The position numbers and the translations under genes were made by a program. Shown here piece after piece: positions 454-63,449 of a stretch of 64,000 nucleotides of DNA. The DNA comes from Acidobacteriota bacterium (GTDB lineage Bacteria; Acidobacteriota; Thermoanaerobaculia; Multivoradales; UBA5704), in the NCBI GenBank assembly GCA_040005235.1, contig JBDTZG010000021.1, forward strand, positions 25,668 to 89,667, in the 5' to 3' direction. Below the pieces are notes generated by a model that did not search any database, was not told where the DNA came from, and saw nothing but the letters and a program-made list of their open reading frames with translations. The stretch's first letter is position 1. Each line of letters begins with the position of its first letter.

Positions 454-2937
454 ATGCTCGGGGCCGTTTCCACTGACGAACTTGGGAGAAGCCTGGTGAC
501 CGAGACGCCCCTTCGTAAGCAGCGCCCGTTTGGCCCCGGGGCCCTCGCGGCCCAAGCCGCTCTCTGGCGCCGTTGCCTCGCGCTTCTGATGTTGCCGCTC
601 CTGCTCTCCGCCGGACGGCCGATGGGCGCGCAGGACGCCGCTCCCAGAACCATTGAGGCAATCGAGACGAAAGGCCTTGCAACCCTGTCGGAAGAGACGC
701 TGCTCTTCTATCTCGGCCTCGAAGTCGGCCAGCCGCTTTCCGAGCGCGATCTCGACGAGCGGATCAAGCAGCTGTGGGAACGGCGCCTGGTGGACGACAT
801 CCAGGTCGATGCCGAGCCGGGAAGCGCCGGCGGGTCGATCAAGCTGGTGATCACCGTAGTCGAACGGCCGATTCTGCGGTCGATCGACTTCCAGGGGCTG
901 AAGCGGGTGTCGAAAACCGACGTCCAGGACAAGATCGCGACCCAGCGCATCCAGGTGCGCGAGAACGATCCGGTCTCTCTGGGCGAGCTGCAGCGGGTGA
1001 AGACCTTGATCGAAGAGCTGTACAAGGAAAAAGGCTACCGCTTCGCTCAGGCCCGCTACACGATCGACGACGTCGGCCCGAACGAAAAGCGGGTGACCTT
1101 CTCGGTCGACGAAGGCAACCGGGTGCGGATCGCCGATCTCAACTTCGAAGGCAACACGGTCTTCAACGACCTCCGCCTGCGCCTGGTGATGAAGAAGACC
1201 AAGCAGACGAACCTAATTTCCCGGCTGTCGAAGCACGACATCTACAGCCCGGCGACGCTCCAGGAAGATCTCGACAAGGTCCGCGACCTCTACCGCGGCG
1301 ACGGCTACAAGAACGTGGTTTTGGGAGAGCCGAAGATCGAGGTCAAGGCGAAGCATCCGAACGCCCCGACCGCAAAGCAAAAGCGCCAGATGTACGTGAC
1401 CATCCCGATCGACGAAGGGGAGCGCTGGAAGTTCGGCGAGGTGAAGATCGAAGGCAACAAGGTCTACACCGAGGCCGGCCTGCTCCGCCTGCTCCATCAG
1501 CGGCCAAACTCCTGGCTGCGGAGCAAGCTCTTGGACGACGGGGTCAAAGCGATCGACGACGTCTACCGCAACAACGGCTACATCTTCGCGCGCATCGAGC
1601 CGGAGGTGATCGAAAAGCCCAACAACGTCGCGGACGTGGTGATCCGGGTCACCGAGGGCGATCAGTTCAAGGTCGGCCGGATCGAGTTCGACGGCAACGA
1701 AAAAACCCGCGACCGGGTGCTGCGCCGCGAGCTTCGCCTCCAAGAGGGGAGCGTCATCTCGATCGCCGGGGTGAAAAATACGGTGACCAAGGTCAACCAG
1801 CTCGGCTACTTCAAGCTGAACGAGGAAGATCCGGTCGACATCGACTACGACAGCGCGAACAAGAAGGTGAACCTGGTGTTCAAGGGGCGCGAATCCGAGC
1901 GCACCGAGTTGCAGTTCGGCGGCGGCTGGAGCGAGGTCGACAAGTTCTTCGGCCAATTTTCGGTCAACACCAAGAACTTCCTCGGCCGCGGCGAGCAGGT
2001 CGGCCTGTCGGTGCAGACCGGCGGCACGCGCCAAGCGTTCGACCTGTCGTACTACGTCCCCTGGCTGCGCGACAAGCCGCAGAGCTTGGGGCTGCGCCTG
2101 TTCAACCAGGATCTCGATTACGAGGTGTTCACCGATCAGCGCCTGCAGCGCAAGTCGAAAGGCGCCGTGCTCACCTACGGCCGTTCTTTCGGCCTGTTCC
2201 ACCAGGCGAGCATCGCCTACAGCCGCGGCAAGTACGACGACCAGCAGAGCTTCACCGACGCGATGGGACTGCCTCAGACGGTGCGGTTGAAGATCGACAA
2301 CTCGTCGCTCAAGCCGTTCTACCTCTACGACAGCCGCGACAATCCGTTCGAGCCGGTGCGCGGCAAGAAAATCAGCTTGAGCCTAGAGTACGCCGGCGGC
2401 TTCCTGGGCGGCGATAACTATTTCTTGCGCCCCGAGGCGGGAATCAGCTATTTCCATCCGATTTTCCGCGGCTCGGCCAAGACGATCTTCGCCACCAACG
2501 TCGAAGCGGGCCTGATCCACAACCTGGACAAGTTTGCCCTCCCGTTCAACGAGCTCTACCGGCTGGGCGGCGACAACAGCATCCGCGGCCACTCGTTCGG
2601 CTCGATCCTGGCCTTGGGCAAGAACGGCGGGCCGCTGGTGTCCTCCGACGGCATCGTGCTCGGCGGCGATCGGTATTTCCAGGCAAACGTGGAATACCAG
2701 TGGCTGCTCGGCGGACCGTTCCGGGTTCTGGCGTTCGTCGACGCGGGCAACACCTGGAACACCGAGTTCGGCGCCGGGGTCGATTTCAGCACTCTGCGCT
2801 ACACCACCGGCTTGGAGCTGCGGGTATTGCTGCCGGTCTTCGGCGCGCCGCTGCGCTTCATTTACGCTTTCAACCTCAACGAGAAGCCGAACGATCGCTT
2901 CCAGCGGTTCCAATTCAGCGTCGGCACCAGCTTCTAG
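454..2937 (+). CDS. bamA: Outer membrane protein assembly factor BamA (true start may be slightly downstream)
   Basis: Signal peptide, five POTRA-like repeats, IRGH loop motif, C-terminal FQFSVGTSF; upstream of skp-lpxD. Confidence 0.95.
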   Translation: MLGAVSTDELGRSLVTETPLRKQRPFGPGALAAQAALWRRCLALLMLPLLLSAGRPMGAQDAAPRTIEAIETKGLATLSEETLLFYLGLEVGQPLSERDLDERIKQLWERRLVDDIQVDAEPGSAGGSIKLVITVVERPILRSIDFQGLKRVSKTDVQDKIATQRIQVRENDPVSLGELQRVKTLIEELYKEKGYRFAQARYTIDDVGPNEKRVTFSVDEGNRVRIADLNFEGNTVFNDLRLRLVMKKTKQTNLISRLSKHDIYSPATLQEDLDKVRDLYRGDGYKNVVLGEPKIEVKAKHPNAPTAKQKRQMYVTIPIDEGERWKFGEVKIEGNKVYTEAGLLRLLHQRPNSWLRSKLLDDGVKAIDDVYRNNGYIFARIEPEVIEKPNNVADVVIRVTEGDQFKVGRIEFDGNEKTRDRVLRRELRLQEGSVISIAGVKNTVTKVNQLGYFKLNEEDPVDIDYDSANKKVNLVFKGRESERTELQFGGGWSEVDKFFGQFSVNTKNFLGRGEQVGLSVQTGGTRQAFDLSYYVPWLRDKPQSLGLRLFNQDLDYEVFTDQRLQRKSKGAVLTYGRSFGLFHQASIAYSRGKYDDQQSFTDAMGLPQTVRLKIDNSSLKPFYLYDSRDNPFEPVRGKKISLSLEYAGGFLGGDNYFLRPEAGISYFHPIFRGSAKTIFATNVEAGLIHNLDKFALPFNELYRLGGDNSIRGHSFGSILALGKNGGPLVSSDGIVLGGDRYFQANVEYQWLLGGPFRVLAFVDAGNTWNTEFGAGVDFSTLRYTTGLELRVLLPVFGAPLRFIYAFNLNEKPNDRFQRFQFSVGTSF

Positions 2938-2958
2938 AAAATCAGGAGATCGAACCGT

Positions 2959-3513
2959 ATGTCGCATGCCACTCGCACCGCCCTCCGTCGCGCCGCTCTG
3001 GCGTCGGCGCTCGTCCTACTCGCCGGTCCGGCCCTCCGGGCGCAGGCCACGTCGCCGAAGTTCGGGGTGATCGACGTGCAGGAGATCGTCACCGAATCGG
3101 AGACCGGTAAAAAAGTCTTCGCGCAGCTCGAAACGTTCGGCAAGGACAAACAGACCGAGCTGGACGGCAAGAGGAAAGAGATCGAAGATCTGCGCGCGAA
3201 GCTCGAAGCCGGCAAGAACACGCTCGCCGAGGCGAAGGTCAAGGAAATGGCCGACCAGATCGAGCAGAAGGGGATCGCGCTCGATCGCGCGCTCGACGAC
3301 GCGAAGCGCGAGTTCAACCGCCGCCAGCAGGAGCTGCTCGGCCAGATCGAGCAGAAGGTCTTGCCGATCATCACCCAGATCGGCAAAGAGGGCGCCTACA
3401 CCTTCATCTTCCGGAAGTTCGACAGCGGACTGATCTATGCGGAAGACACCGCGGACATCACCAAGACGGTGATCCAGAAGCTCGACGCCGCGCAGGCCGC
3501 GGCCGGCAAATAA
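2959..3513 (+). CDS. skp: Periplasmic chaperone Skp/OmpH
   Basis: Signal peptide, GVIDVQEI, coiled coil, DITKTVIQKL; canonical position after bamA; SD AGGAG. Confidence 0.93.
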   Translation: MSHATRTALRRAALASALVLLAGPALRAQATSPKFGVIDVQEIVTESETGKKVFAQLETFGKDKQTELDGKRKEIEDLRAKLEAGKNTLAEAKVKEMADQIEQKGIALDRALDDAKREFNRRQQELLGQIEQKVLPIITQIGKEGAYTFIFRKFDSGLIYAEDTADITKTVIQKLDAAQAAAGK

Positions 3514-3517
3514 CCGG

Positions 3518-4618
3518 GTGGCGATCCGTCTCCGCGATCTCGCCGCCCAAGTCGGAGGGCGCGTCGAAGGCGACGGGGAGCTCACCGTGTCCGGAGTCCG
3601 GCCGCTCGCCGAGGCGGCGGCCGAGCACCTTTCCCTCTGGAACCATCCGCGCTACCGAGCCGACGCCGAAGCGAGCGGGGCGGGCGCGCTATTGACCACG
3701 CCCGCTCTGGCTGCGCAACTGGCTGAGCAGCCGCCCGAGCAGTTGCCCGAAAGATCGGGGCGAAACCTGTTGCTGGTGGACGACGTGTCTTTCGCTTTGG
3801 CCCGGGTGCTCGCACTGCTCCATCCGGAGCGGTCGCGTCCGCCGGGTATCGCCCTTACGGCGATCGTCGATCCGAGTGCCGAGGTCGATCCTTCGGCGTG
3901 GGTCGGCCCCTATGTGGTGATCGAGGCGGGAAGCCGGATCGGCGCGGGCGCCGCGGTGCATCCGTTCGTCGCGATCGGCCGGGATTGCACGGTGGGCGAG
4001 GGAGCGATCCTCTATCCGCACGCGGTGCTTTACGACGGCACCGAGATCGGCGCGGCGTCGATCGTCCATGCGGGAGCGGTGATCGGAAGCGACGGCTTCG
4101 GCTACGCCACCCATGGCGGCGTGCACCACAAAGTGCCGCAGGTCGGGCGCGCGGTGATCGAGGCGGAGGTCGAGGTCGGAGCGAACAGCACGATCGACCG
4201 GGCGACGCTCGGCGAGACCCGGATCGGCCGCGGCACGAAGGTGGACAATCTGGTCCAGGTGGGGCACAACGTGAAGGTGGGGGACCGGTCGATCCTCTGC
4301 GGCCAGGCCGGCATCGCCGGCTCGACCGAGCTCGGCCGATACGTCGTGCTCGCGGGCCAGGTGGGGGTCTCCGGCCACCTCGAAGTGGCGGAAGGCACCC
4401 AGGTGGCGGCAAAATCCGCGGTGCTCCGCTCGGCGGAGGTGAAAGGACAGCAGATCGGCGGCATCCCGGCCGTGCCGATCGGCGAGTGGCGCCGCCAGGC
4501 GGCCGCGACCGCCCGGCTGCCGGAGGCGATCCGGCGCCAGAATGATCTAGCGCGCCGGGTGGCGCGGATCGAGGAACGGCTCGACGCGTTCGGCCGCACA
4601 GAGGAGGGGGAGGAATGA
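3518..4618 (+). CDS. lpxD: UDP-3-O-acyl-glucosamine N-acyltransferase LpxD
   Basis: Hexapeptide repeats, GSDGFGY, IDRAT, KVDNLVQVGHN. Confidence 0.96.
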   Translation: MAIRLRDLAAQVGGRVEGDGELTVSGVRPLAEAAAEHLSLWNHPRYRADAEASGAGALLTTPALAAQLAEQPPEQLPERSGRNLLLVDDVSFALARVLALLHPERSRPPGIALTAIVDPSAEVDPSAWVGPYVVIEAGSRIGAGAAVHPFVAIGRDCTVGEGAILYPHAVLYDGTEIGAASIVHAGAVIGSDGFGYATHGGVHHKVPQVGRAVIEAEVEVGANSTIDRATLGETRIGRGTKVDNLVQVGHNVKVGDRSILCGQAGIAGSTELGRYVVLAGQVGVSGHLEVAEGTQVAAKSAVLRSAEVKGQQIGGIPAVPIGEWRRQAAATARLPEAIRRQNDLARRVARIEERLDAFGRTEEGEE

Positions 4619-5085
4619 GCAACCAAGTCCCGGACGCCGAAACGGAGGCGCCGAAGCGCGACATCGACTGGATTCTCTCGATCCTGCCGCACCGGTATCC
4701 GATCCTGCTGGTCGATCGGGTGCTGGAGCTCGAACCCAAGCAGCGGATCGTGGCGATCAAGAACGTGACGATCAACGAGCCGGTCTTCCTCGGCCATTTC
4801 CCGCAGAAGCCGGTGATGCCGGGCGTGTTTCTGATCGAGGGTCTCGCCCAGGCGGGCGGCCTGCTACTGCTCTCCGAGATGCCCGACCGCGACCGCAAGC
4901 TTTTGTTCTTCGCCGGGATCGAGGAGGCGAAGTTCCGCCGTCCGGTCGTTCCCGGCGATCAGATCCGCTACGAGGTGGAGGTCCTGCGCCTGCGCTCGAC
5001 CTTCTGCCGCTTCTCCGGCAAAGTCCTGGTCGACGGCCAGATCGCGGCCCAGGCGATCCTCTCCTCGGCGATGGTGGATCGCTGA
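4615..5085 (+). CDS. fabZ: 3-hydroxyacyl-ACP dehydratase FabZ
   Basis: LPHRYPILLVDRV, GHFPQKPVMPGV. Confidence 0.97.
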   Translation: MSNQVPDAETEAPKRDIDWILSILPHRYPILLVDRVLELEPKQRIVAIKNVTINEPVFLGHFPQKPVMPGVFLIEGLAQAGGLLLLSEMPDRDRKLLFFAGIEEAKFRRPVVPGDQIRYEVEVLRLRSTFCRFSGKVLVDGQIAAQAILSSAMVDR

Positions 5086-5939
5086 TGACGGCGCCAACCC
5101 CCAAGGCTTCGGGCATCCACCCTCAGGCGATCGTCGATCCTTCCGCCAAGCTCGCGGACAGCGTGATCGTCGGGCCGTTCGCGGTGATCGGTCCGGAGGT
5201 CGAGATCGGCGAAGGAACCGAAATCGGCGCGAGCGCCCAGGTCTACGGCCCCACCAAGATCGGCCGCGAGAACAAGATCTATCCGCATGCCGCGATCGGC
5301 TTCGATCCGCAGGATCTGTCGTTCAAAGGCGAGACGGTGTCGCTCCAGATGGGCGATCGCAACGTGGTGCGTGAGTTTTCGACGATCCACCGCGGCACCA
5401 CCAAAGGGGGCGGCCTCACCCGGGTGGGCAGCGACAACCTGTTCATGGCCTACACCCACATCGCCCACGACTGCACGGTTGGCGACCGGACGATCTTCGC
5501 CAACAACGCGACTCTCGCCGGCCACGTCGAGGTCCATGACGACGCGACGATCAGCGCGTTTTCCGCGGTACACCAGTTCTGCCGGGTCGGGCGCCATGCC
5601 TACATCGGCGGCTTCTCCGTGATCGTGATGGACGCCCTGCCGTTCGCCAAGAGCGTCGGCCAGAAGCCGGCTTTTTACGGCTTGAACGCGATCGGCCTGC
5701 GGCGCAAAGGCTTCGACCGCGAGGCGATCAAAAACCTCGACCGGGCGATGAAAATCCTGGTCGAATCGAAGCTGAACACGACCCAGGCGCTGGTGCGGCT
5801 GCGCGCCGAGCTGGCCGGCGACCCGAACGTCGACTACCTGATCGATTACGTCGAGACCGCGAAACGCGGCTATTACCGGAGCCTGCCCGGCCGCCGGTCG
5901 GGCCGCGGAGGGGGGACTTCTGAATCCGCAACGGAGTAG
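5085..5939 (+). CDS. lpxA: UDP-N-acetylglucosamine acyltransferase LpxA
   Basis: Hexapeptide repeats, PQDL, TIHRGT, HIAHDC, LAGHV, VHQF. Confidence 0.96.
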   Translation: MTAPTPKASGIHPQAIVDPSAKLADSVIVGPFAVIGPEVEIGEGTEIGASAQVYGPTKIGRENKIYPHAAIGFDPQDLSFKGETVSLQMGDRNVVREFSTIHRGTTKGGGLTRVGSDNLFMAYTHIAHDCTVGDRTIFANNATLAGHVEVHDDATISAFSAVHQFCRVGRHAYIGGFSVIVMDALPFAKSVGQKPAFYGLNAIGLRRKGFDREAIKNLDRAMKILVESKLNTTQALVRLRAELAGDPNVDYLIDYVETAKRGYYRSLPGRRSGRGGGTSESATE

Positions 5940-6894
5940 CGCCCTCTCTGGGTCAGCCGCGCCCCGACTGAAGATTGGCGTAGTCGGCACCGGCTCGCTC
6001 GGCCGGCACCACGTGCGTATTCTGGCCTCGTTGCCGGGTGTGGAGCTGGTGGGGATCGTCGACAGCCGCTCCGAGGTGGCCGAAGCGCTCGCCGCCGAGC
6101 ATGGCACGGTGGTTCTGCCGTCGATCGAGGCGCTCGCGGATCTTGCGGAAGCGGCGGTGGTGGCGGTACCCACCGTGGCGCATGCCGAGATCGGCTGCTT
6201 CCTCGCCCGACGCGGGCTGCATTTGATGGTCGAAAAGCCGATCGCCGGCTCGCTCGCCGAAGCCGACGAGCTGATCGCGGCGGCGGAGGCTGCGGGAAAA
6301 GTCCTCGCGGTCGGCCATGTCGAATTCCACAATCCGGCGGTGCAAGCTCTCTCCGGCATCGGCGTGCCGCCGCGCTTCGTCGAAATCGAACGGCTGGGAG
6401 TCTTTTCGCCGCGCAGCTTGGACGTCGACGTAGTGCTCGACCTGATGATTCATGATCTTCAGATCCTCCACTCTCTCGACCCCTCCCCGGTGGCCGAAGT
6501 CCGGGCGACGGGAATCTCGGTGCTCTCGCCGAAGATCGACATCGCGAACGCCCGGATCGAGCTTAAGTCCGGATGCGTCGCGAACCTGACCGCCTCGCGC
6601 GTCTCGGCGGAGCGGGCGCGGAAGCTGCGTGCCTTCCTTCCCAGCCGCTATTACTCGCTCGATTACCAGGCGCAGGAGATCAAAGGCTACCGCCTGATCG
6701 ACGAGGGCGGCAAGCGGCGCATCCAGAAAGATGATCTGCCGGTCGAGAAGGCCGAGCCGCTCAAATGCGAGCTGCAGGCGTTCGTCGCCGACTGCGCAGG
6801 CCACTCAGGCGACAGCCCGGCCCGCTCGGTCTCGGGCCGCCAGGGGCGCCGGGCGCTCGAATCGGCGCTCGCGGTGGTGGCGGCGATCGGCTGA
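5920..6894 (+). CDS. Gfo/Idh/MocA oxidoreductase (GnnA-like); start extended upstream of the ORF-track GTG at 6013
   Basis: EKP and DLMIHD motifs; Rossmann motif KIGVVGTGSLG lies in frame upstream of 6013; in-frame CTG at 5920 follows GGAGGGG. Confidence 0.8.
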   Translation: MNPQRSSALSGSAAPRLKIGVVGTGSLGRHHVRILASLPGVELVGIVDSRSEVAEALAAEHGTVVLPSIEALADLAEAAVVAVPTVAHAEIGCFLARRGLHLMVEKPIAGSLAEADELIAAAEAAGKVLAVGHVEFHNPAVQALSGIGVPPRFVEIERLGVFSPRSLDVDVVLDLMIHDLQILHSLDPSPVAEVRATGISVLSPKIDIANARIELKSGCVANLTASRVSAERARKLRAFLPSRYYSLDYQAQEIKGYRLIDEGGKRRIQKDDLPVEKAEPLKCELQAFVADCAGHSGDSPARSVSGRQGRRALESALAVVAAIG

Positions 6895-6996
6895 CCCATG
6901 GGCGCACTGCCGTAACTTTATTTCACTCCCCGCGTACAATTCGCAGCGCCGGATCGTATGGGCGGCGCCCTTCCCCACTTTCCCGATAGGTGACCC

Positions 6997-8235
6997 GTGA
7001 AGAAGAAACTGATCTGGGCGTTCGTGATCCTGGTGGTGGTAGCGGTCGTTGCGGGCATCGCGATCAAGAATAAGGGGCCGAAGCCGACCGAAGTGCAGGT
7101 CGCAAAGGTCGGCCGCGAAGATCTACAGGCCAAAGTGAGCGCCAACGGCAAGATCCAGGCGCAGAAGAAAGTCGACGTCTCGGCGACCGTCGCCGGCCAG
7201 ATCACCCATATTGCGGTCGAAGAGGGCGACTCGGTCAAGAAGGGCCAGTTGCTCGCCCAGATCGACCCGGTTTCGACGCGCGCCCAGGTGCGCGGCAGCG
7301 AAGCCTCGATCGATGCGCTACGGCGCGACGTCGATTCGGCGCGCGCGAGCGTCGCGCAGGCGCAGGCCGATTTCCGCCGTTCCGAGGCCAATTTCAAGGC
7401 CGGTATCGTCCCTGCCGCCGACATGGAGCGGACCAAGACGGTGGTCGCGACGGCCGAGGCGACGGTCAAGGCCGCGGAGCGCCGGGTGGTCCAGGCGAGC
7501 GCCGGCCTCGAAGGGACGCGCGACCTGCTGGCGAAGACGACCATTCGCTCGACCATGGACGGCATCGTCACCGCCCGGCGCGTGGAAGAGGGTGAGGTCG
7601 CGGTGGTCGGCATCCAGAACAGCCCGGGGACGGTGCTATTCCAGATCTCCGACATGTCGGTGGTCGAGGCCGAGCTGGAGGTCGACGAAACCTCGATCCC
7701 CAACGTCGTGCTCGGCCAGGAGGCGCGCGTCCGGCTCGACGCCTATCCGAACAAAACCTTCCGCGGCACGGTGACCGAGGTCGGGTCGAGCCCGATCCTC
7801 TCGGGTTCCAACCTGGCGATCAAGTTCAGGGTCAAAGTCCGCCTCGACGAGCCGCCGAAGGGGATCAAGCCCGGCCTTTCGGCCCGCGCCGACATCCTCA
7901 CCGGTTTCCGCGGCGATGCCCTGGTGGTGCCGCTCCAGGCGCTGGTGGTGCGCGAGATCGAACGCAAGCCGGGCGTCAAGGCCGATCCGAACGCACCGCG
8001 CGACCAGGAGGGGGTCTACCTGATGGAGAACGGCAAGACCCGCTTCCAGCCGATCACCACCGGCATGATCGGCGAGCTGTCGATCGAGGTCGTTTCCGGG
8101 CTCAAAGGGGGCGAGACGCTGATTACCGGACCGTTCAAGGCGCTGCGCGAGCTCGAACCCGGAGGGGCCGTGAAAGTCGAGGACCCGAAGAAGAAAAAGC
8201 TGGGCGAGGGCTCAGTCGGGAACGGCAAAGGCTAG
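6997..8235 (+). CDS. Efflux periplasmic adaptor (MacA/HlyD family)
   Basis: N-terminal TM, lipoyl halves (VEEGDSVKKGQLL, TIRSTMDGIV), coiled hairpin, VSGLKGGE. Confidence 0.92.
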   Translation: MKKKLIWAFVILVVVAVVAGIAIKNKGPKPTEVQVAKVGREDLQAKVSANGKIQAQKKVDVSATVAGQITHIAVEEGDSVKKGQLLAQIDPVSTRAQVRGSEASIDALRRDVDSARASVAQAQADFRRSEANFKAGIVPAADMERTKTVVATAEATVKAAERRVVQASAGLEGTRDLLAKTTIRSTMDGIVTARRVEEGEVAVVGIQNSPGTVLFQISDMSVVEAELEVDETSIPNVVLGQEARVRLDAYPNKTFRGTVTEVGSSPILSGSNLAIKFRVKVRLDEPPKGIKPGLSARADILTGFRGDALVVPLQALVVREIERKPGVKADPNAPRDQEGVYLMENGKTRFQPITTGMIGELSIEVVSGLKGGETLITGPFKALRELEPGGAVKVEDPKKKKLGEGSVGNGKG

Positions 8236-59802: not shown

Positions 59803-59985
59803 CAAACGCCGTAGGTTCCTGATTCTAAGAAGAATTGTCCCTCTCAAGGAAGATTCTGTGTGGATTTTTCTCCGGTTTGGTCGAAATTCTTTGTCACGGT
59901 TACCGATTCAGGACAAACAATGCCTTGTAGAGGCGACATCGCGCGGCATGGCGCCGCCGGAGAGTCGTCGAGCAAGGAGAACGTC

Positions 59986-60324
59986 ATGCGTACCTATTTC
60001 TTCCCCCGTCTGGTTGTAGCCACCCTGGCCGCCGCGATCCTGATCACACCGCTTCCGGCTTCAGCCGTCCGTCTGGATTTCGGAGCTTTCGGCTCGATGT
60101 TCGAATCGAGCTGGGGATCGATCGCCGGCTGGACCGGAGAGCTCTTGCAGCATTTGTGGGCCAGAGAAGGAATTTCGATCGATCCTCTCGGCCGGCCGGA
60201 AGCGGTGCCGGGCATGGCTCCGGAGGGCGTCCGGCACCTTTGGGCCGATGAAGGGATCTCGATCGATCCTCTCGGTCGGCAGGCCCCTGCCCCGGCGGCG
60301 ACCACCGGGGACGATCGTCAGTAG
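59986..60324 (+). CDS. Secreted 112-aa peptide with duplicated HLWAxEGISIDPLGR motif
   Basis: SD AAGGAG; Sec signal ending ASA; repeats at 60151-60195 and 60235-60279. Confidence 0.85.
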   Translation: MRTYFFPRLVVATLAAAILITPLPASAVRLDFGAFGSMFESSWGSIAGWTGELLQHLWAREGISIDPLGRPEAVPGMAPEGVRHLWADEGISIDPLGRQAPAPAATTGDDRQ

Positions 60325-60458
60325 CTCGTAAAATCATCGGGTTCGGCATTCCGATTCGCAGAGAAGTAACTTTGTCGGAGATTTTTGTCTCAAAATAACC
60401 TCTTGCGGCAACCAAGGTATGTAGAGAGAGAATTCTCGAACCTTGGGAGGAATGCCGG

Positions 60459-61733
60459 ATGGAGAGGGAAGCAGGACATCTGACGATCGAAACGTTGGCC
60501 CGGTGGCTCGCGGGGGATCTTCCGCACGAAGTGGTCGTGGGGGAGATCGCCCCGCATCTCGAAGCGAGCTGTCCGACCTGCCGCGAGCGCTTCGTCGAGT
60601 TGCGCGAGCTTCAGGGGGAGGTGGGTCATTGGAACGAAACGGTAGTGCTTTTTGAAGGACGGGAAGCGCCGAGCCAACTCGCACAGTTGGAGCGACTGCC
60701 GCTTCCCGAGCAGTTGGTCCAGGTTCAGGAGGACGGCAACCTTCGGACATGGGCACTCTGTGCGCTATTGATTCGCGAGAGCCAAGGCGCCGTTTCTGAC
60801 CAGCCTTTGCGCGCGGTGGAGCGCGCCGAGGTAGCTGTTCGGATTGCCGAGCAGCTGTCGGGAGAGGTATATGACTCGGTGTGGGTCCACGACCTGTGTG
60901 CTCGTGCCTGGGCTCACCTAGCAAATTCGCGACGGGTTTTGGGAGAGCTCCTCGGTGCGGACCAGGCATTGCGCACCGCGCAGGCCCTGCTCGAACGGGG
61001 CGGTACCGGTGCGCCCGAAGTGCTGGCCGAACTGCTTCACATTCAGGCGGCTCTCCGCCGGGCTCAACGCCGCCTGCCCGAAGCGCTCGTGGCGGCCGAC
61101 GACGCCATGGCCTTGTTCCTAGGGGCAAATCATCCCGCGGCAATGCACCGGGTGCGACTGACACGAGCGAAGATCCGCGAGGAGCTCGGCGACTTACCCG
61201 GGACCATCGCCGATCTCGAAAGTGTGATCGAAGAGGTCGACGCGGAGGGAGAAACGGTGCTGCGCGCCTATGCGCACCATAATCTTCTCACCGCGCTGAT
61301 GTTTGCCGGCCGCTTCGAGGAGGCATCCCAAAGGCTAGAAGAAGTTCGAGGCATGTTCCTCCTCGCCAACCCTCTCGACCGGCTCCGTTTGCGCTGGCTC
61401 GAAGCGCGGATTGCCGCGGGGCTAGGCCGGCAGGACGAGGCTGAGAGCATCCTTCGAGAGGTGCGGAAAGAGTTCTTCGAGCGACAGATGGGCTACGACG
61501 CGGCGCTCGCGGCGCTCGATCTTGCGACCTTGTTCGCCGAGCAGGGACGGACGCAGGAGATCAAGCAGCTCGCGATCGAGGTACTACCTCTGTTCGAATC
61601 GCGCGAGGTCCATCGCGAGGCGATGGGGGCTTTGATCCTGTTCCAGCGGGCCGCGGAGCAGGAGAACCTGACCGTCGAGCTGGCTCGGCAGGTGGCGGCG
61701 TTCCTCTCCCGGGAGAGATCGCTCGGCTTCTGA
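60459..61733 (+). CDS. TPR-like helical protein with N-terminal zf-HC2 (anti-sigma-type) zinc finger
   Basis: HLTIETLARWLAG...HLEASCPTC; TPR-like helices (AWAHLAN, AHHNLL, ARIAAGLG, LDLA); SD GGGAGG. Confidence 0.8.
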   Translation: MEREAGHLTIETLARWLAGDLPHEVVVGEIAPHLEASCPTCRERFVELRELQGEVGHWNETVVLFEGREAPSQLAQLERLPLPEQLVQVQEDGNLRTWALCALLIRESQGAVSDQPLRAVERAEVAVRIAEQLSGEVYDSVWVHDLCARAWAHLANSRRVLGELLGADQALRTAQALLERGGTGAPEVLAELLHIQAALRRAQRRLPEALVAADDAMALFLGANHPAAMHRVRLTRAKIREELGDLPGTIADLESVIEEVDAEGETVLRAYAHHNLLTALMFAGRFEEASQRLEEVRGMFLLANPLDRLRLRWLEARIAAGLGRQDEAESILREVRKEFFERQMGYDAALAALDLATLFAEQGRTQEIKQLAIEVLPLFESREVHREAMGALILFQRAAEQENLTVELARQVAAFLSRERSLGF

Positions 61734-61743
61734 TTGGCCGAGG

Positions 61744-61771
61744 CGAGGGCGGCCCTCCGTGGCCGCCCTCG
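61744..61771 (+). terminator. GC hairpin after the TPR gene
   Basis: 11-bp perfect stem CGAGGGCGGCC/GGCCGCCCTCG; no U-tract. Confidence 0.5.
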
Positions 61772-61898: not shown

Positions 61899-63449
61899 AT
61901 GACCGATCTATCGGTTCCTCGCGATTCTCGGCGCGTTCCGCTCGAGACGCGGGTCCAGCTCAAGTTCGAGAAGTTCAGCGGATTCATCAACGAATTCTCC
62001 GCCAACATCTCGCCCGGGGGGATCTTCATCCGCTCCGATCGGCCCGAACCGGTGGGAACCCTGGTCGATTTCGAATTCCGGCTGGGCGACGGCTTTGAGC
62101 TGATTAAAGGCCGTGGTGAAGTCGCCTGGGCGCGGGAATCGAGCGACGACCCGGCCCATCCCGCCGGCATGGGGCTCAGTTTTCTGGAGATTTCACCGCA
62201 GGGCAAAGAGCTGATCTACAAAGTGGTGGACCGCCACGTTCAGTCGGGCGGCGTGCCGTTCGATCCGACCCCGCCCCCGCCGGTCCCGGCGCCTGCGGTC
62301 ACCGCGCCTCGAGTTGCGATTACGCCTCTCGGTCGGCCGGCGCCGCAGGAGCCGCCGATTCGCAACGCCGATCGGCTGCTCCAACTCTTCGAAGAGGCGA
62401 CCGCGAGCGTCGAAGCGACCGAGAACAAGCACGCCGAGCAGGCCCCTTCGGCTCCGGCGCTTCCGGTCTCCGCGATGCAGGCGGTCCCCGCGCCTGTCCC
62501 TGCAGCCCCCGCGCCCGCCGAAGCTCCGCCGCCGCTCGAACGAACCTGGACCGGCCGGGCGCCGATTCTCGCGCCGCCTCCTGAGGTGCCGCTGCGCCAG
62601 GTGCCGTCGCCGCTCGACGACACGCAATCCGGTGGCATTCTTGTTCCCCCGGAACCCGGGGCGGCCAAGGGGAAGGCGCGGCGATCCTTGCAGGTGGTTC
62701 TCGGAGTTTTCCTGCTCGCACTGGTCCTCGCCGGCATCGCCGCTTGGCGGGTCAAGGACATCTGGTGGGACGATTTCTTTGGCGAGCCCGATCCCGAGCC
62801 GCTCCCCGCGGCGTTTGCCAACCCGGAACGTAAGCCCATGTACCGTAGCCTGCCCGGCAAGCGGGCTTTGGGTACCGGTTCGCCGACCCCCACCGTCCAG
62901 GGGACCGGGGGCGCTCCGGCGACCGCGCCGCCGCCGAACCCCGCACCGGTCCAGATCGCGACCGCGCCGGTAGCCCCTCCGGTAGCTATAGCTCCCCCGG
63001 GGCCTCCCATTTCCGTTCAAAGCCCCGCTCCCGGCCCGCCTGCGGCGCCTATTACCCCTCCGCCGGCGGCTGCTTCCGCCCTGCAAGTCGCGCCGGCCGA
63101 AGCGCCGCGCCCGGTGCTCGCCGCCCTGCGCTCGATCTCCGTGCGCGCCCTGCCGAACGAGACCGAGGTGGTGCTCGAAGGAGACGGCATCATCCGCTCC
63201 TCGAACTTCGCGCAGTTTCGGATCGATTCCGGAACCCCCCGGGAGCTGATTCGATTCAAGGGGATCCGTCATGCCTACCCGGCCACCAAGGTCGCGGGGG
63301 GAACACCCGAGCTGGCGCAGATCCGCATCGGCTATCACAGCCCGGACGAGTTGCACGTCGTGTTCGACCTCACCGGGCCGGAGATCGTGGTGAAGAGTCT
63401 CGACGTCTCGGTCTCCCGCCTGACGGTCCGGCTCGGGCGAAAGCGCTGA
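61899..63449 (+). CDS. PilZ (TIGR02266-like) protein with Pro-rich linkers, one TM and a C-terminal AMIN-like domain
   Basis: RDSRR and NISPGG c-di-GMP motifs, GEVAW, GMGLSF; TM LGVFLLALVLAGIAAW; PRELIRF...QIRIGYH...LHVVFDL. Confidence 0.8.
   Translation: MTDLSVPRDSRRVPLETRVQLKFEKFSGFINEFSANISPGGIFIRSDRPEPVGTLVDFEFRLGDGFELIKGRGEVAWARESSDDPAHPAGMGLSFLEISPQGKELIYKVVDRHVQSGGVPFDPTPPPPVPAPAVTAPRVAITPLGRPAPQEPPIRNADRLLQLFEEATASVEATENKHAEQAPSAPALPVSAMQAVPAPVPAAPAPAEAPPPLERTWTGRAPILAPPPEVPLRQVPSPLDDTQSGGILVPPEPGAAKGKARRSLQVVLGVFLLALVLAGIAAWRVKDIWWDDFFGEPDPEPLPAAFANPERKPMYRSLPGKRALGTGSPTPTVQGTGGAPATAPPPNPAPVQIATAPVAPPVAIAPPGPPISVQSPAPGPPAAPITPPPAAASALQVAPAEAPRPVLAALRSISVRALPNETEVVLEGDGIIRSSNFAQFRIDSGTPRELIRFKGIRHAYPATKVAGGTPELAQIRIGYHSPDELHVVFDLTGPEIVVKSLDVSVSRLTVRLGRKR

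Follow-up and report, generated by a model that had tools for sequence, protein, structure and literature searches.

A peptide gene beside a zinc-finger/TPR gene in Thermoanaerobaculia: a candidate peptide-gated anti-sigma cassette

Does a small gene for a predicted secreted peptide, found beside a gene for a tetratricopeptide repeat (TPR) protein in an Acidobacteriota genome, encode a signal, and is its neighbor the receptor? The window analyzed here is a stretch of 64,000 nucleotides (contig JBDTZG010000021.1, positions 25,668 to 89,667) from a soil member of the Thermoanaerobaculia, whose genome (G000) comprises 6.2 Mb in 140 contigs. The two genes are co-oriented and separated by an intergenic spacer of 134 bp:

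59986..60324, + strand: P0001, pre-pro-peptide gene of 112 amino acids (open reading frame (ORF) call; member of the peptide family)
60459..61733, + strand: P0002, zinc-finger/TPR protein gene of 424 amino acids (ORF call)

A sequence-only reading of the window had proposed an RRNPP-like peptide–receptor system with output through a sigma factor. The association of peptide and TPR genes proved to be real and family-wide, and the domain assignments of P0002 are reasonably secure. That the pair would act as a peptide-gated soluble anti-sigma cassette, by analogy with the logic of Rap-Phr, is a proposal that we regard as evenly poised between right and wrong.

The window genome contains 42 paralogues of P0002 and 33 peptide-family ORFs, the latter detected at E<0.1 with a hidden Markov model built from 15 small ORFs. 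Thirty of the 33 adjoin a P0002 paralogue, within approximately 830 bp apart from one at 1954 bp, and 35 of the 42 TPR paralogues have an adjoining peptide ORF, leaving 3 peptide ORFs and 7 TPR genes unpaired. In other genomes, all complete P0002-like loci (13/13) have an adjoining peptide gene, so the expectation of the sequence-only reading, that TPR homologues and DPxG peptides should adjoin one another across the genome, is borne out both here and at the orthologous loci. The order of peptide gene followed by zinc-finger/TPR gene recurs in two other genera. In genome G061, 7–8 of 17 zinc-domain matches are preceded by a peptide match 100–470 bp upstream on the same strand, as are 13 of 36 in genome G533, again with the upstream match on the same strand.

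The paralogues fall into two receptor classes. In the first, 19 proteins combine an XRE-type helix-turn-helix (HTH) domain (HTH_3/HTH_31) with the TPR domain, and the peptide gene lies downstream on the opposite strand, in convergent orientation, often followed by a second regulator. In the second, 20 proteins carry a His/Cys finger (18 Hx4Cx2C and 2 Hx3Cx2C, from sequences read by eye), and 14 of them are preceded by a co-oriented peptide gene, as in the window. The output domain differs between the classes; the pairing of peptide and TPR domain is kept in both. The earlier suggestion of a sigma output in place of an HTH domain therefore corresponds to a real dichotomy, with the sister TPR class carrying the XRE HTH.

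The adjacency, together with the upstream element common to both genes of the pair (described below), fits equally well a different explanation, in which the TPR protein is a regulator that senses something else and the secreted peptide is its regulated cargo, an antimicrobial, adhesive or protective effector. This is the main rival, and one that we consider doubtful; the two further alternatives taken up below are less likely. The numbers count against it, in that some 35 private pairs in a single genome, with as many as 47 peptide genes in one relative, are unusual for effectors and typical of signal-receptor repertoires. The retention of the peptide neighbor by the TPR domain through a change of output domain counts against it too.

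The peptide family is widespread among close relatives and extends into large public collections. Within the window's family, each of the 24 other genomes gave matches to the peptide profile (3–47 per genome), as did genomes of three sister families (2/2, 1/2 and 1/1), and none of 11 genomes sampled from the remaining families of the order did so. A phylum-wide search of 301 genomes, with 15 candidates scored in each, returned only the window genome, in a sample without further members of the window's family. Of 251 genomes from the class, 6 have genes similar to P0002 (E ≤1e-70). Against 1.84 billion representative proteins, the peptide profile retrieved 2377 clusters at E ≤1e-3 and 553 at E ≤1e-10. 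Among the best 150 of these clusters, 148 are ≤210 amino acids long, and 143 of those 148 have an N-terminal hydrophobic run, mostly with 3–4 cores.

Neither gene is covered by an existing NCBIfam or Pfam family. Relatives of P0002 carry only the public names ‘TPR repeat protein’, ‘hypothetical’ or ‘MalT-like region’, and the ESM Atlas returned only Acidobacteriota clusters without names, all below 0.9. A search of the literature on RRNPP systems, peptide quorum sensing and TPR or anti-sigma proteins in Acidobacteria found no description of this system; as far as the available text of one source goes, peptide quorum sensing, with encoded signals and cytoplasmic TPR receptors, is placed in Bacillota and their phages (PMC10075063).

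What, then, does the small gene encode? Three features of the precursor are needed here:

59986..60066, + strand: predicted Sec-type signal peptide, residues 1–27 (by inspection, with putative cleavage after A-S-A)
60151..60195, + strand: repeat unit 1, HLWAREGISIDPLGR (unit comparison)
60235..60279, + strand: repeat unit 2, HLWADEGISIDPLGR (unit comparison)

The N-terminus of P0001 reads MRTYFFPR, then a hydrophobic stretch (top 15-residue Kyte-Doolittle window of 2.45, residues 9–23) and then A-S-A at residues 25–27, so that by the -3/-1 rule cleavage would fall after A27. This agrees with the 112-residue ORF and Sec signal described earlier, and the same layout is common to all 21 rows of the peptide alignment (A2). 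The two HLWA(R/D)EGISIDPLGR units differ at 9 nucleotides, comprising five synonymous codon differences (cat/cac, ttg/ctt, gga/ggg, att/atc and ggc/ggt) and a sole replacement (aga/gat, R/D), and every codon pair matches the earlier account. By the Nei-Gojobori method (NG86), the nonsynonymous divergence (dN) between the units is 0.12 and the synonymous divergence (dS) 0.74, giving a dN/dS of 0.17, and when 9 substitutions were placed at random on the unit, none of 20,000 placements changed one residue or fewer. Both results uphold the claim that selection has acted on the peptide sequence. Between the two cores, 17 nucleotides are identical.

The relatives of P0001 follow a common plan of signal peptide, amphipathic W..L..LWA segment and one to five cores toward the C-terminus, the core pattern being G-(C)-x-Φ-D-P-x-G-(R/K)-(C/P). 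The final core stops ≤6 residues short of the C-terminus in 126 of 144 family representatives, a position that, by analogy with RRNPP propeptides, fits a released signal. Tandem pheromone copies can likewise occur in RRNPPA propeptides, described for Bacillota in the available portion of PMC11343458. The effector explanation draws on a different property of the same cores, namely that 415 of 471 motifs among the family representatives are flanked by Cys and that Cys-closed nine-residue loops dominate; the tandem units of two large relatives, P0131 and P0165, also look like a bulk product.

P0131 (731 amino acids) and P0165 (783 amino acids), both from the representative library, are large secreted proteins whose middle part consists of many tandem units of nine to ten residues of the type G-x-x-Φ-D-P-N-G-(R/K), some without a spacer. 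They resemble polyprotein precursors of the same peptide unit.

The repetition of the cores, with their invariant D-P and, in most relatives, Cys on the flanks, might also indicate a multi-core precursor of a ribosomally synthesized and post-translationally modified peptide (RiPP), or an Asp-Pro self-cleaving protein, with the TPR protein as pathway scaffold or regulator, and a prolyl-oligopeptidase-family gene does follow one cassette (C63). RiPP precursors have a leader and adjoining modifying enzymes, whereas the N-terminus of P0001 has the character of a Sec signal, its neighbors are genes for a phosphoglucose isomerase (PGI)-like protein, a glucokinase and a PilZ protein, and it matches no precursor family in NCBIfam or Pfam. 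At 20 fetched module loci, 59 ORFs flanking the cassettes were scanned for modifying-enzyme families; the only recognized one was in a partial radical-SAM ORF, which lies about 1.2 kb away from the leading sigma gene in an array on contig C103. Asp-Pro hydrolysis needs acid conditions. The RiPP alternative raised in the sequence-only reading thus finds no support at these loci or at the window pair, and we think it, or self-cleavage, highly improbable. No immunity, export or modification genes recur at the 20 loci, which also speaks against a secreted effector as the product of the cassettes.

The second gene should, if the proposal is right, encode both a sensor and a sigma-binding output. 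Its product divides into two parts:

60459..60743, + strand: N-terminal anti-sigma-like zinc domain, residues 1–95 (candidate ligands H7, H33, C38 and C41)
60732..61730, + strand: TPR superhelix, residues ~92–424, the proposed peptide-binding sensor (AlphaFold2 model)

The HxxxxCxxC finger reported for the co-oriented 424-residue TPR-like protein directly downstream of the peptide gene was found as H33-x4-C38-x2-C41. Across 48 P0002 homologues H33, C38, C41 and H57 do not vary, and H7 is present in more than 90%. A profile built on residues 1–95 of 18 proteins found, among all sequences in the PDB, the anti-sigma factor ChrR (2q1z_B, 2z2s_B) as its best match at E 5e-4, followed by DdvA (E 0.04) and RslA (E 0.82), and H7, H33, C38 and C41 align with the zinc-ligand positions of ChrR across a one-residue gap. 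The isolated N-domain was modeled with a mean predicted local distance difference test score (pLDDT) of 88, and anti-sigma N-domains (MucA, RsiW, RseA, the SigK partner, RslA, PupR and DdvA) account for 7 of the 33 top VIA-align rows. Judged from the profile and its ligands, the finger of P0002 is probably an anti-sigma domain. The maximum Kyte-Doolittle value over 19 residues is 0.99, and P0002 is thus without a membrane-type segment and soluble.

For the remainder of the protein, Pfam gave only sub-threshold TPR matches (TPR_12, E 1.2e-4), with paralogues passing the cut-off, and Pfam and NCBIfam scans of the TPR family returned generic TPR, MalT-like, and NsdA or AfsR-type weak matches only; no RRNPP-specific Pfam family was among the matches of P0002 or its paralogues. 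The AlphaFold2 model is an all-helical repeat superhelix from about residue 92 (pLDDT 90, predicted template modeling score 0.85). In VIA-align its closest structures are LGN (Z 22.7), Pins (21.6), RapI (19.9), a phage Rap with peptide (19.7), NprR with NprX (18.8), RapH (18.6), PlcR with PapR (16.7) and MalT (16.5), and the Foldseek ranking agrees. As modeled, the fold belongs with TPRs that hold extended peptides in their concave groove.

Evidence for a sigma factor as the target comes from the sister cassettes. In the array on C103 (L018, G000:C103:10000-19000, 1797-6842) the gene order is sigma, zinc-finger/TPR, sigma, peptide, sigma, zinc-finger/TPR. The first zinc-finger/TPR start overlaps the sigma stop by 4 nucleotides, pointing to translational coupling, and the three sigma genes, all of the extracytoplasmic function (ECF) type, are paralogues. 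Sigma genes adjoin TPR paralogues on C12 and C124 as well. At the most distant P0002-like locus, in another family (L044, G237:C1:516851-520906, 468-2592), a peptide ORF, an ORF with sigma region 2 only and an Hx3Cx2C-TPR gene follow one another; the peptide ORF overlaps the sigma-like ORF in a different frame, and the latter may be a decaying remnant. Because sigma genes adjoin zinc-finger/TPR paralogues, the anti-sigma assignment is supported. Of the eight sigma genes of the C103 subfamily (three on C103 and one each on C12, C124, C116, C17 and C25), those on C116, C17 and C25 have no TPR-family paralogue on their contig and are candidate partners of P0002; scans of the C116 and C17 flanks revealed housekeeping genes and no recognized anti-sigma gene. 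The earlier idea that the zinc finger binds a sigma factor therefore gains from the ChrR profile match and the sigma-coupled paralogues, and loses from the lack of a sigma gene adjoining the window pair.

The accessible sections of PMC8999054 describe soluble zinc anti-sigma (ZAS) factors as known mainly as redox sensors, and ECF270 of Acidobacteria as regulated by a soluble ZAS-domain protein whose mechanism is not known. The sigma and zinc-finger/TPR arrays of the window genome may belong to ECF270, for which neither those sections nor the available text of PMC7826278 mentions a TPR sensor or a linked peptide.

The history of the pair was followed among six genus-level orthologues, whose cores are as follows:

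Window: unit 1 ISIDPLG, unit 2 ISIDPLG
G528: unit 1 VSIDPFG, unit 2 ASCDPLG
G209: unit 1 ASFDPLG, unit 2 ASCDPLG
L037 and G526: unit 1 VSIDPWG, unit 2 none
L038 and G149: unit 1 GSFDPLG, unit 2 none

The scaffold G-x-S-x-D-P-x-G-R is constant, and the variable positions hold I/V/A/G, I/F/C and L/F/W. G528 too has two units. The unit duplication is old, since the dS of 0.74 between units approaches the orthologue dS of 0.8–1.3 and since the inter-unit spacer is homologous in G209. Relative to orthologues, dN/dS is 0.09–0.15 for the TPR gene, which is under strong purifying selection, and 0.37–0.48 for the peptide gene, which is under weaker constraint. The faster evolution of the peptide gene is in keeping with its being an effector under the control of a conserved regulator.

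Co-variation of paralogous pairs, the other pattern that a set of cognate signals and receptors would leave, was seen in part. Over 29 pairs in the window genome, TPR and peptide distances correlate with r 0.57 (p 2e-4), a signal that comes from the HTH class, in which r is 0.61 over 14 pairs and nearest neighbors agree in 11 of 14. The zinc-finger class, to which the window pair belongs, did not follow, as reported with the other opposing observations below, and the effector explanation takes this absence of co-divergence in its favor.

Are the two genes also controlled together? Each is preceded by the same bipartite element:

59890..59932, + strand: TTTGTC-N30-TGTAGAG, upstream of the peptide gene (DNA alignment A5)
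60384..60426, + strand: TTTGTC-N30-TGTAGAG, second copy, upstream of the TPR gene (DNA alignment A5)

The first copy lies inside a block of about 100 nucleotides (~59887-59985) and the second inside one of about 80 nucleotides, both nearly invariant in four genomes and, among those four, better conserved than the peptide coding sequence. The 6.2-Mb genome has only two exact sites, both in the module; as the pattern was derived from these two sites, only its absence elsewhere counts as a test, and a looser version has 10 further matches in the genome. Both leaders are predicted to fold so as to pair part of the ribosome-binding region. In the leader of P0001, the predicted hairpin (-29.9 kcal/mol, z -2.1) pairs CCUUGU with the ribosome-binding sequence GCAAGG, and the P0001-P0002 spacer has a predicted fold of -46 kcal/mol (z -3.2). 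A sigma-70 promoter scan gave 0 sites, Rfam returned nothing relevant in the window module and two paralogous loci, and the 7- to 9-mers that the upstream blocks of the module have in common with the upstream regions of 8 sigma genes are at about chance level.

Upstream of the second sigma gene of the C103 array (G000:C103 13774-14352), GGACAAA..ATGCC.TG resembles window positions 59910-59930. The likeness is no longer than chance allows and is recorded as a lead only for a common promoter.

Taken as a peptide-gated anti-sigma cassette, the pair would operate in a sequence of steps, of which export, processing, re-import, peptide–TPR binding, sigma binding and autoregulation are all ones that we infer. 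The small gene would give a pre-pro-peptide exported by the Sec system, from which signal peptidase and further proteases would free short peptides with the G-x-S-x-D-P-x-G-R core, two copies per precursor. The peptide would then return to the cytoplasm, conceivably through an Opp-type importer, genes for which are present in the genome. There the TPR superhelix of the neighboring protein would take it up in its concave groove, and the N-terminal zinc anti-sigma domain of that protein would hold an ECF sigma encoded elsewhere, or adjacent in sister cassettes. Peptide binding would alter the hold on the sigma and so switch a small regulon, probably including both genes of the pair through their common, unique upstream element. 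As for the importer, the only SBP_bac_5 (Opp/Dpp-type) gene of the genome lies with two permease genes and without adjacent ATPase genes (L066, G000:C8:59800-72000, 4397-8108); its contig also holds an HTH-class cassette, about 4.6 kb away.

Several observations weigh against this scheme. Because the peptide would be exported and the receptor is cytoplasmic, the signal must recross two membranes, and the 59 flanking ORFs at the 20 loci include no dedicated transporter. Neither the window pair nor its genus-level orthologues have a sigma gene beside them. In the zinc-finger class (15 pairs), whose peptides are short and hard to align, the distances gave a Mantel r of -0.07 (p 0.70), with nearest-neighbor agreement in only 1 of 15. 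The Pfam zf-HC2 model did not match the zinc domain even at E up to 5 with isolated N-terminal parts, and the motif spacing is Hx4Cx2C rather than the canonical Hx3Cx2C. With the isolated N-domain, Foldseek found nothing at E ≤0.001 (best DdvA, E 3.2), and the VIA-align matches all have Z ≤4. The likeness of the modeled TPR fold is generic, with LGN ranking above the RRNPP receptors, and does not imply function. Cys-flanked cores would be as fitting for a stable effector outside the cell as for a signal, and the identity of the two P0001 cores could in part stem from gene conversion over a short tract. Of the original proposal of an RRNPP-like peptide and receptor with sigma output, then, the linkage, the ChrR match and the HTH sister class speak for it, and co-divergence in the zinc class and an adjoining sigma gene are missing.

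The need to recross two membranes would vanish if the TPR domain bound the unexported precursor and export changed its hold on the sigma, with no re-import. Type III secretion class II TPR chaperones, which bind substrates (IpgC-MxiE, SicA-InvF), offer a model for such a secretion-coupled partner switch, and the conservation of the W..L..LWA segment, which is part of the repeated unit and has W58 kept in more than 90% of 21 sequences, implies constraint beyond the short core. Sec substrates, however, are normally exported quickly, a switch of this kind is without known precedent for a Sec signal, and C-terminal, multi-copy cores fit released peptides better. We regard it as improbable.

How close is the proposed cassette to known systems? 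The nearest is Rap-Phr of Bacillus and its phages, in which a TPR protein without a DNA-binding domain sequesters a regulator, as is proposed for P0002, a small peptide that is exported, processed and re-imported is encoded alongside, as we propose for the window pair, and many paralogous cassettes occur per genome, as in the window genome. As modeled, P0002 has a fold similar to those of RapI, phage Rap and RapH at the Z values given above and has no sequence-level relationship to them. Rap has an N-terminal three-helix bundle where P0002 has a zinc anti-sigma-like domain; Rap targets Spo0F or ComA, whereas the proposed target of P0002 is an ECF sigma. The window pair also differs in that its peptide gene lies upstream and its host is an acidobacterium with an outer membrane.

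NprR-NprX and PlcR-PapR combine an HTH and TPR receptor with an adjacent exported peptide, which is the arrangement of the sister class and not of P0002, since P0002, for all its fold similarity to NprR and PlcR, lacks an HTH. The sister class in turn differs from those systems in having a convergent peptide gene, often a second regulator, and DPxG-loop cores that are mostly Cys-closed. Among RRNPP(A) features, the TPR-type superhelix without a membrane segment and the small adjacent propeptide with predicted export and C-terminal cores are present; P0002 lacks an N-terminal HTH or Rap-type bundle and sequence membership in the receptor families. Tandem Phr-type propeptides are known in Bacillota, whereas here small precursors hold 1–5 copies and P0131 and P0165 many.

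P0002 may be compared with the ZAS (class I) anti-sigma factors (ChrR-sigmaE, RslA-SigL, DdvA) on its profile match to ChrR with four aligned ligands and, as in ChrR, its predicted solubility; its paralogues show translational coupling to ECF sigma genes. The Hx4Cx2C spacing and the missing zf-HC2 match set it apart, as does its sensor, a TPR superhelix of 330 residues in place of a cupin or a membrane or periplasmic domain. ZAS factors are encoded with their ECF sigma, which is true for the paralogues on C103 and C12 and at L044 and not for the window pair.

Extended to a family of Thermoanaerobaculia, the proposal becomes one of dozens of private peptide channels per cell, with the HTH class acting on DNA and the zinc class gating ECF sigmas; many peptide-specific anti-sigmas might then converge on a few common sigmas, by analogy with Rap phosphatases on Spo0F. 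We advance this tentatively, at slightly less than an even chance. If so, it would give a diderm phylum its first superfamily of peptide pheromones and receptors and provide the first anti-sigma factor gated by a ligand peptide. Peptide communication would then reach into a soil phylum that is abundant and difficult to culture, the regulation of ECF sigmas would gain a new class of input, and the 2377 peptide clusters in public data would represent a sizeable natural library of peptide-sensor pairs that are orthogonal to one another.

The immediate surroundings of the pair include one further feature:

61744..61771, + strand: GC-rich closing hairpin, 11-bp stem without a T tail (-30.6 kcal/mol, z -2.8)

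The hairpin was not called by the terminator scan. The GC content of the spacers is 0.425 (59820-59939) and 0.46–0.48 (60300-60479), against 0.60–0.75 in the genes, and these values and the 11-bp stem agree with the description of AT-rich spacers around the pair and a closing hairpin. The statement that the pair sits between housekeeping genes holds for the upstream side, where a PGI-like gene and a glucokinase gene are found, and not for the downstream side, where Pfam identifies a PilZ/AMIN protein, which belongs to signaling. In the product of that downstream gene (window 61899-63449), a PilZ domain is followed by a long linker, rich in Pro and Ala and including a hydrophobic segment, and by a weak AMIN domain, which makes it an unusually built receptor of the c-di-GMP type.

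Finally, a few neighbors of the sister cassettes were recorded. Directly downstream of one peptide and zinc-finger/TPR pair (L020, G000:C63:4500-10500) is a prolyl-oligopeptidase-family (Peptidase_S9) gene (3-2165, - strand), a neighbor seen once in 20 loci and of interest as every core holds an invariant Asp-Pro. Sigma-54 activator genes (Sigma54_activat + HTH_8) at L017:350-1942 and L018:629-1675 adjoin the two cassettes with the TPR proteins closest to P0002; in the C103 array the activator is upstream, and a Schlafen/AlbA_2 plus HATPase_c_4 protein is encoded downstream. In addition, a double-hairpin element, GCAACGC-loop-GCGTTGC followed by CCCCCGCGGGCGCGGGGGCC, has exactly five copies in the genome (≤3 mismatches), at C20:15313-15336, C52:6493-6516, C81:20623-20646, C126:66790-66813 and C139:21690-21713 (loci L035, L034 and others). 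At each copy it lies 60–75 nucleotides upstream of a zinc-finger-class peptide gene, with no Rfam match, and because its first loop varies from 4 to 10 nucleotides, a structure formed in RNA or DNA seems more likely than an operator of fixed spacing.

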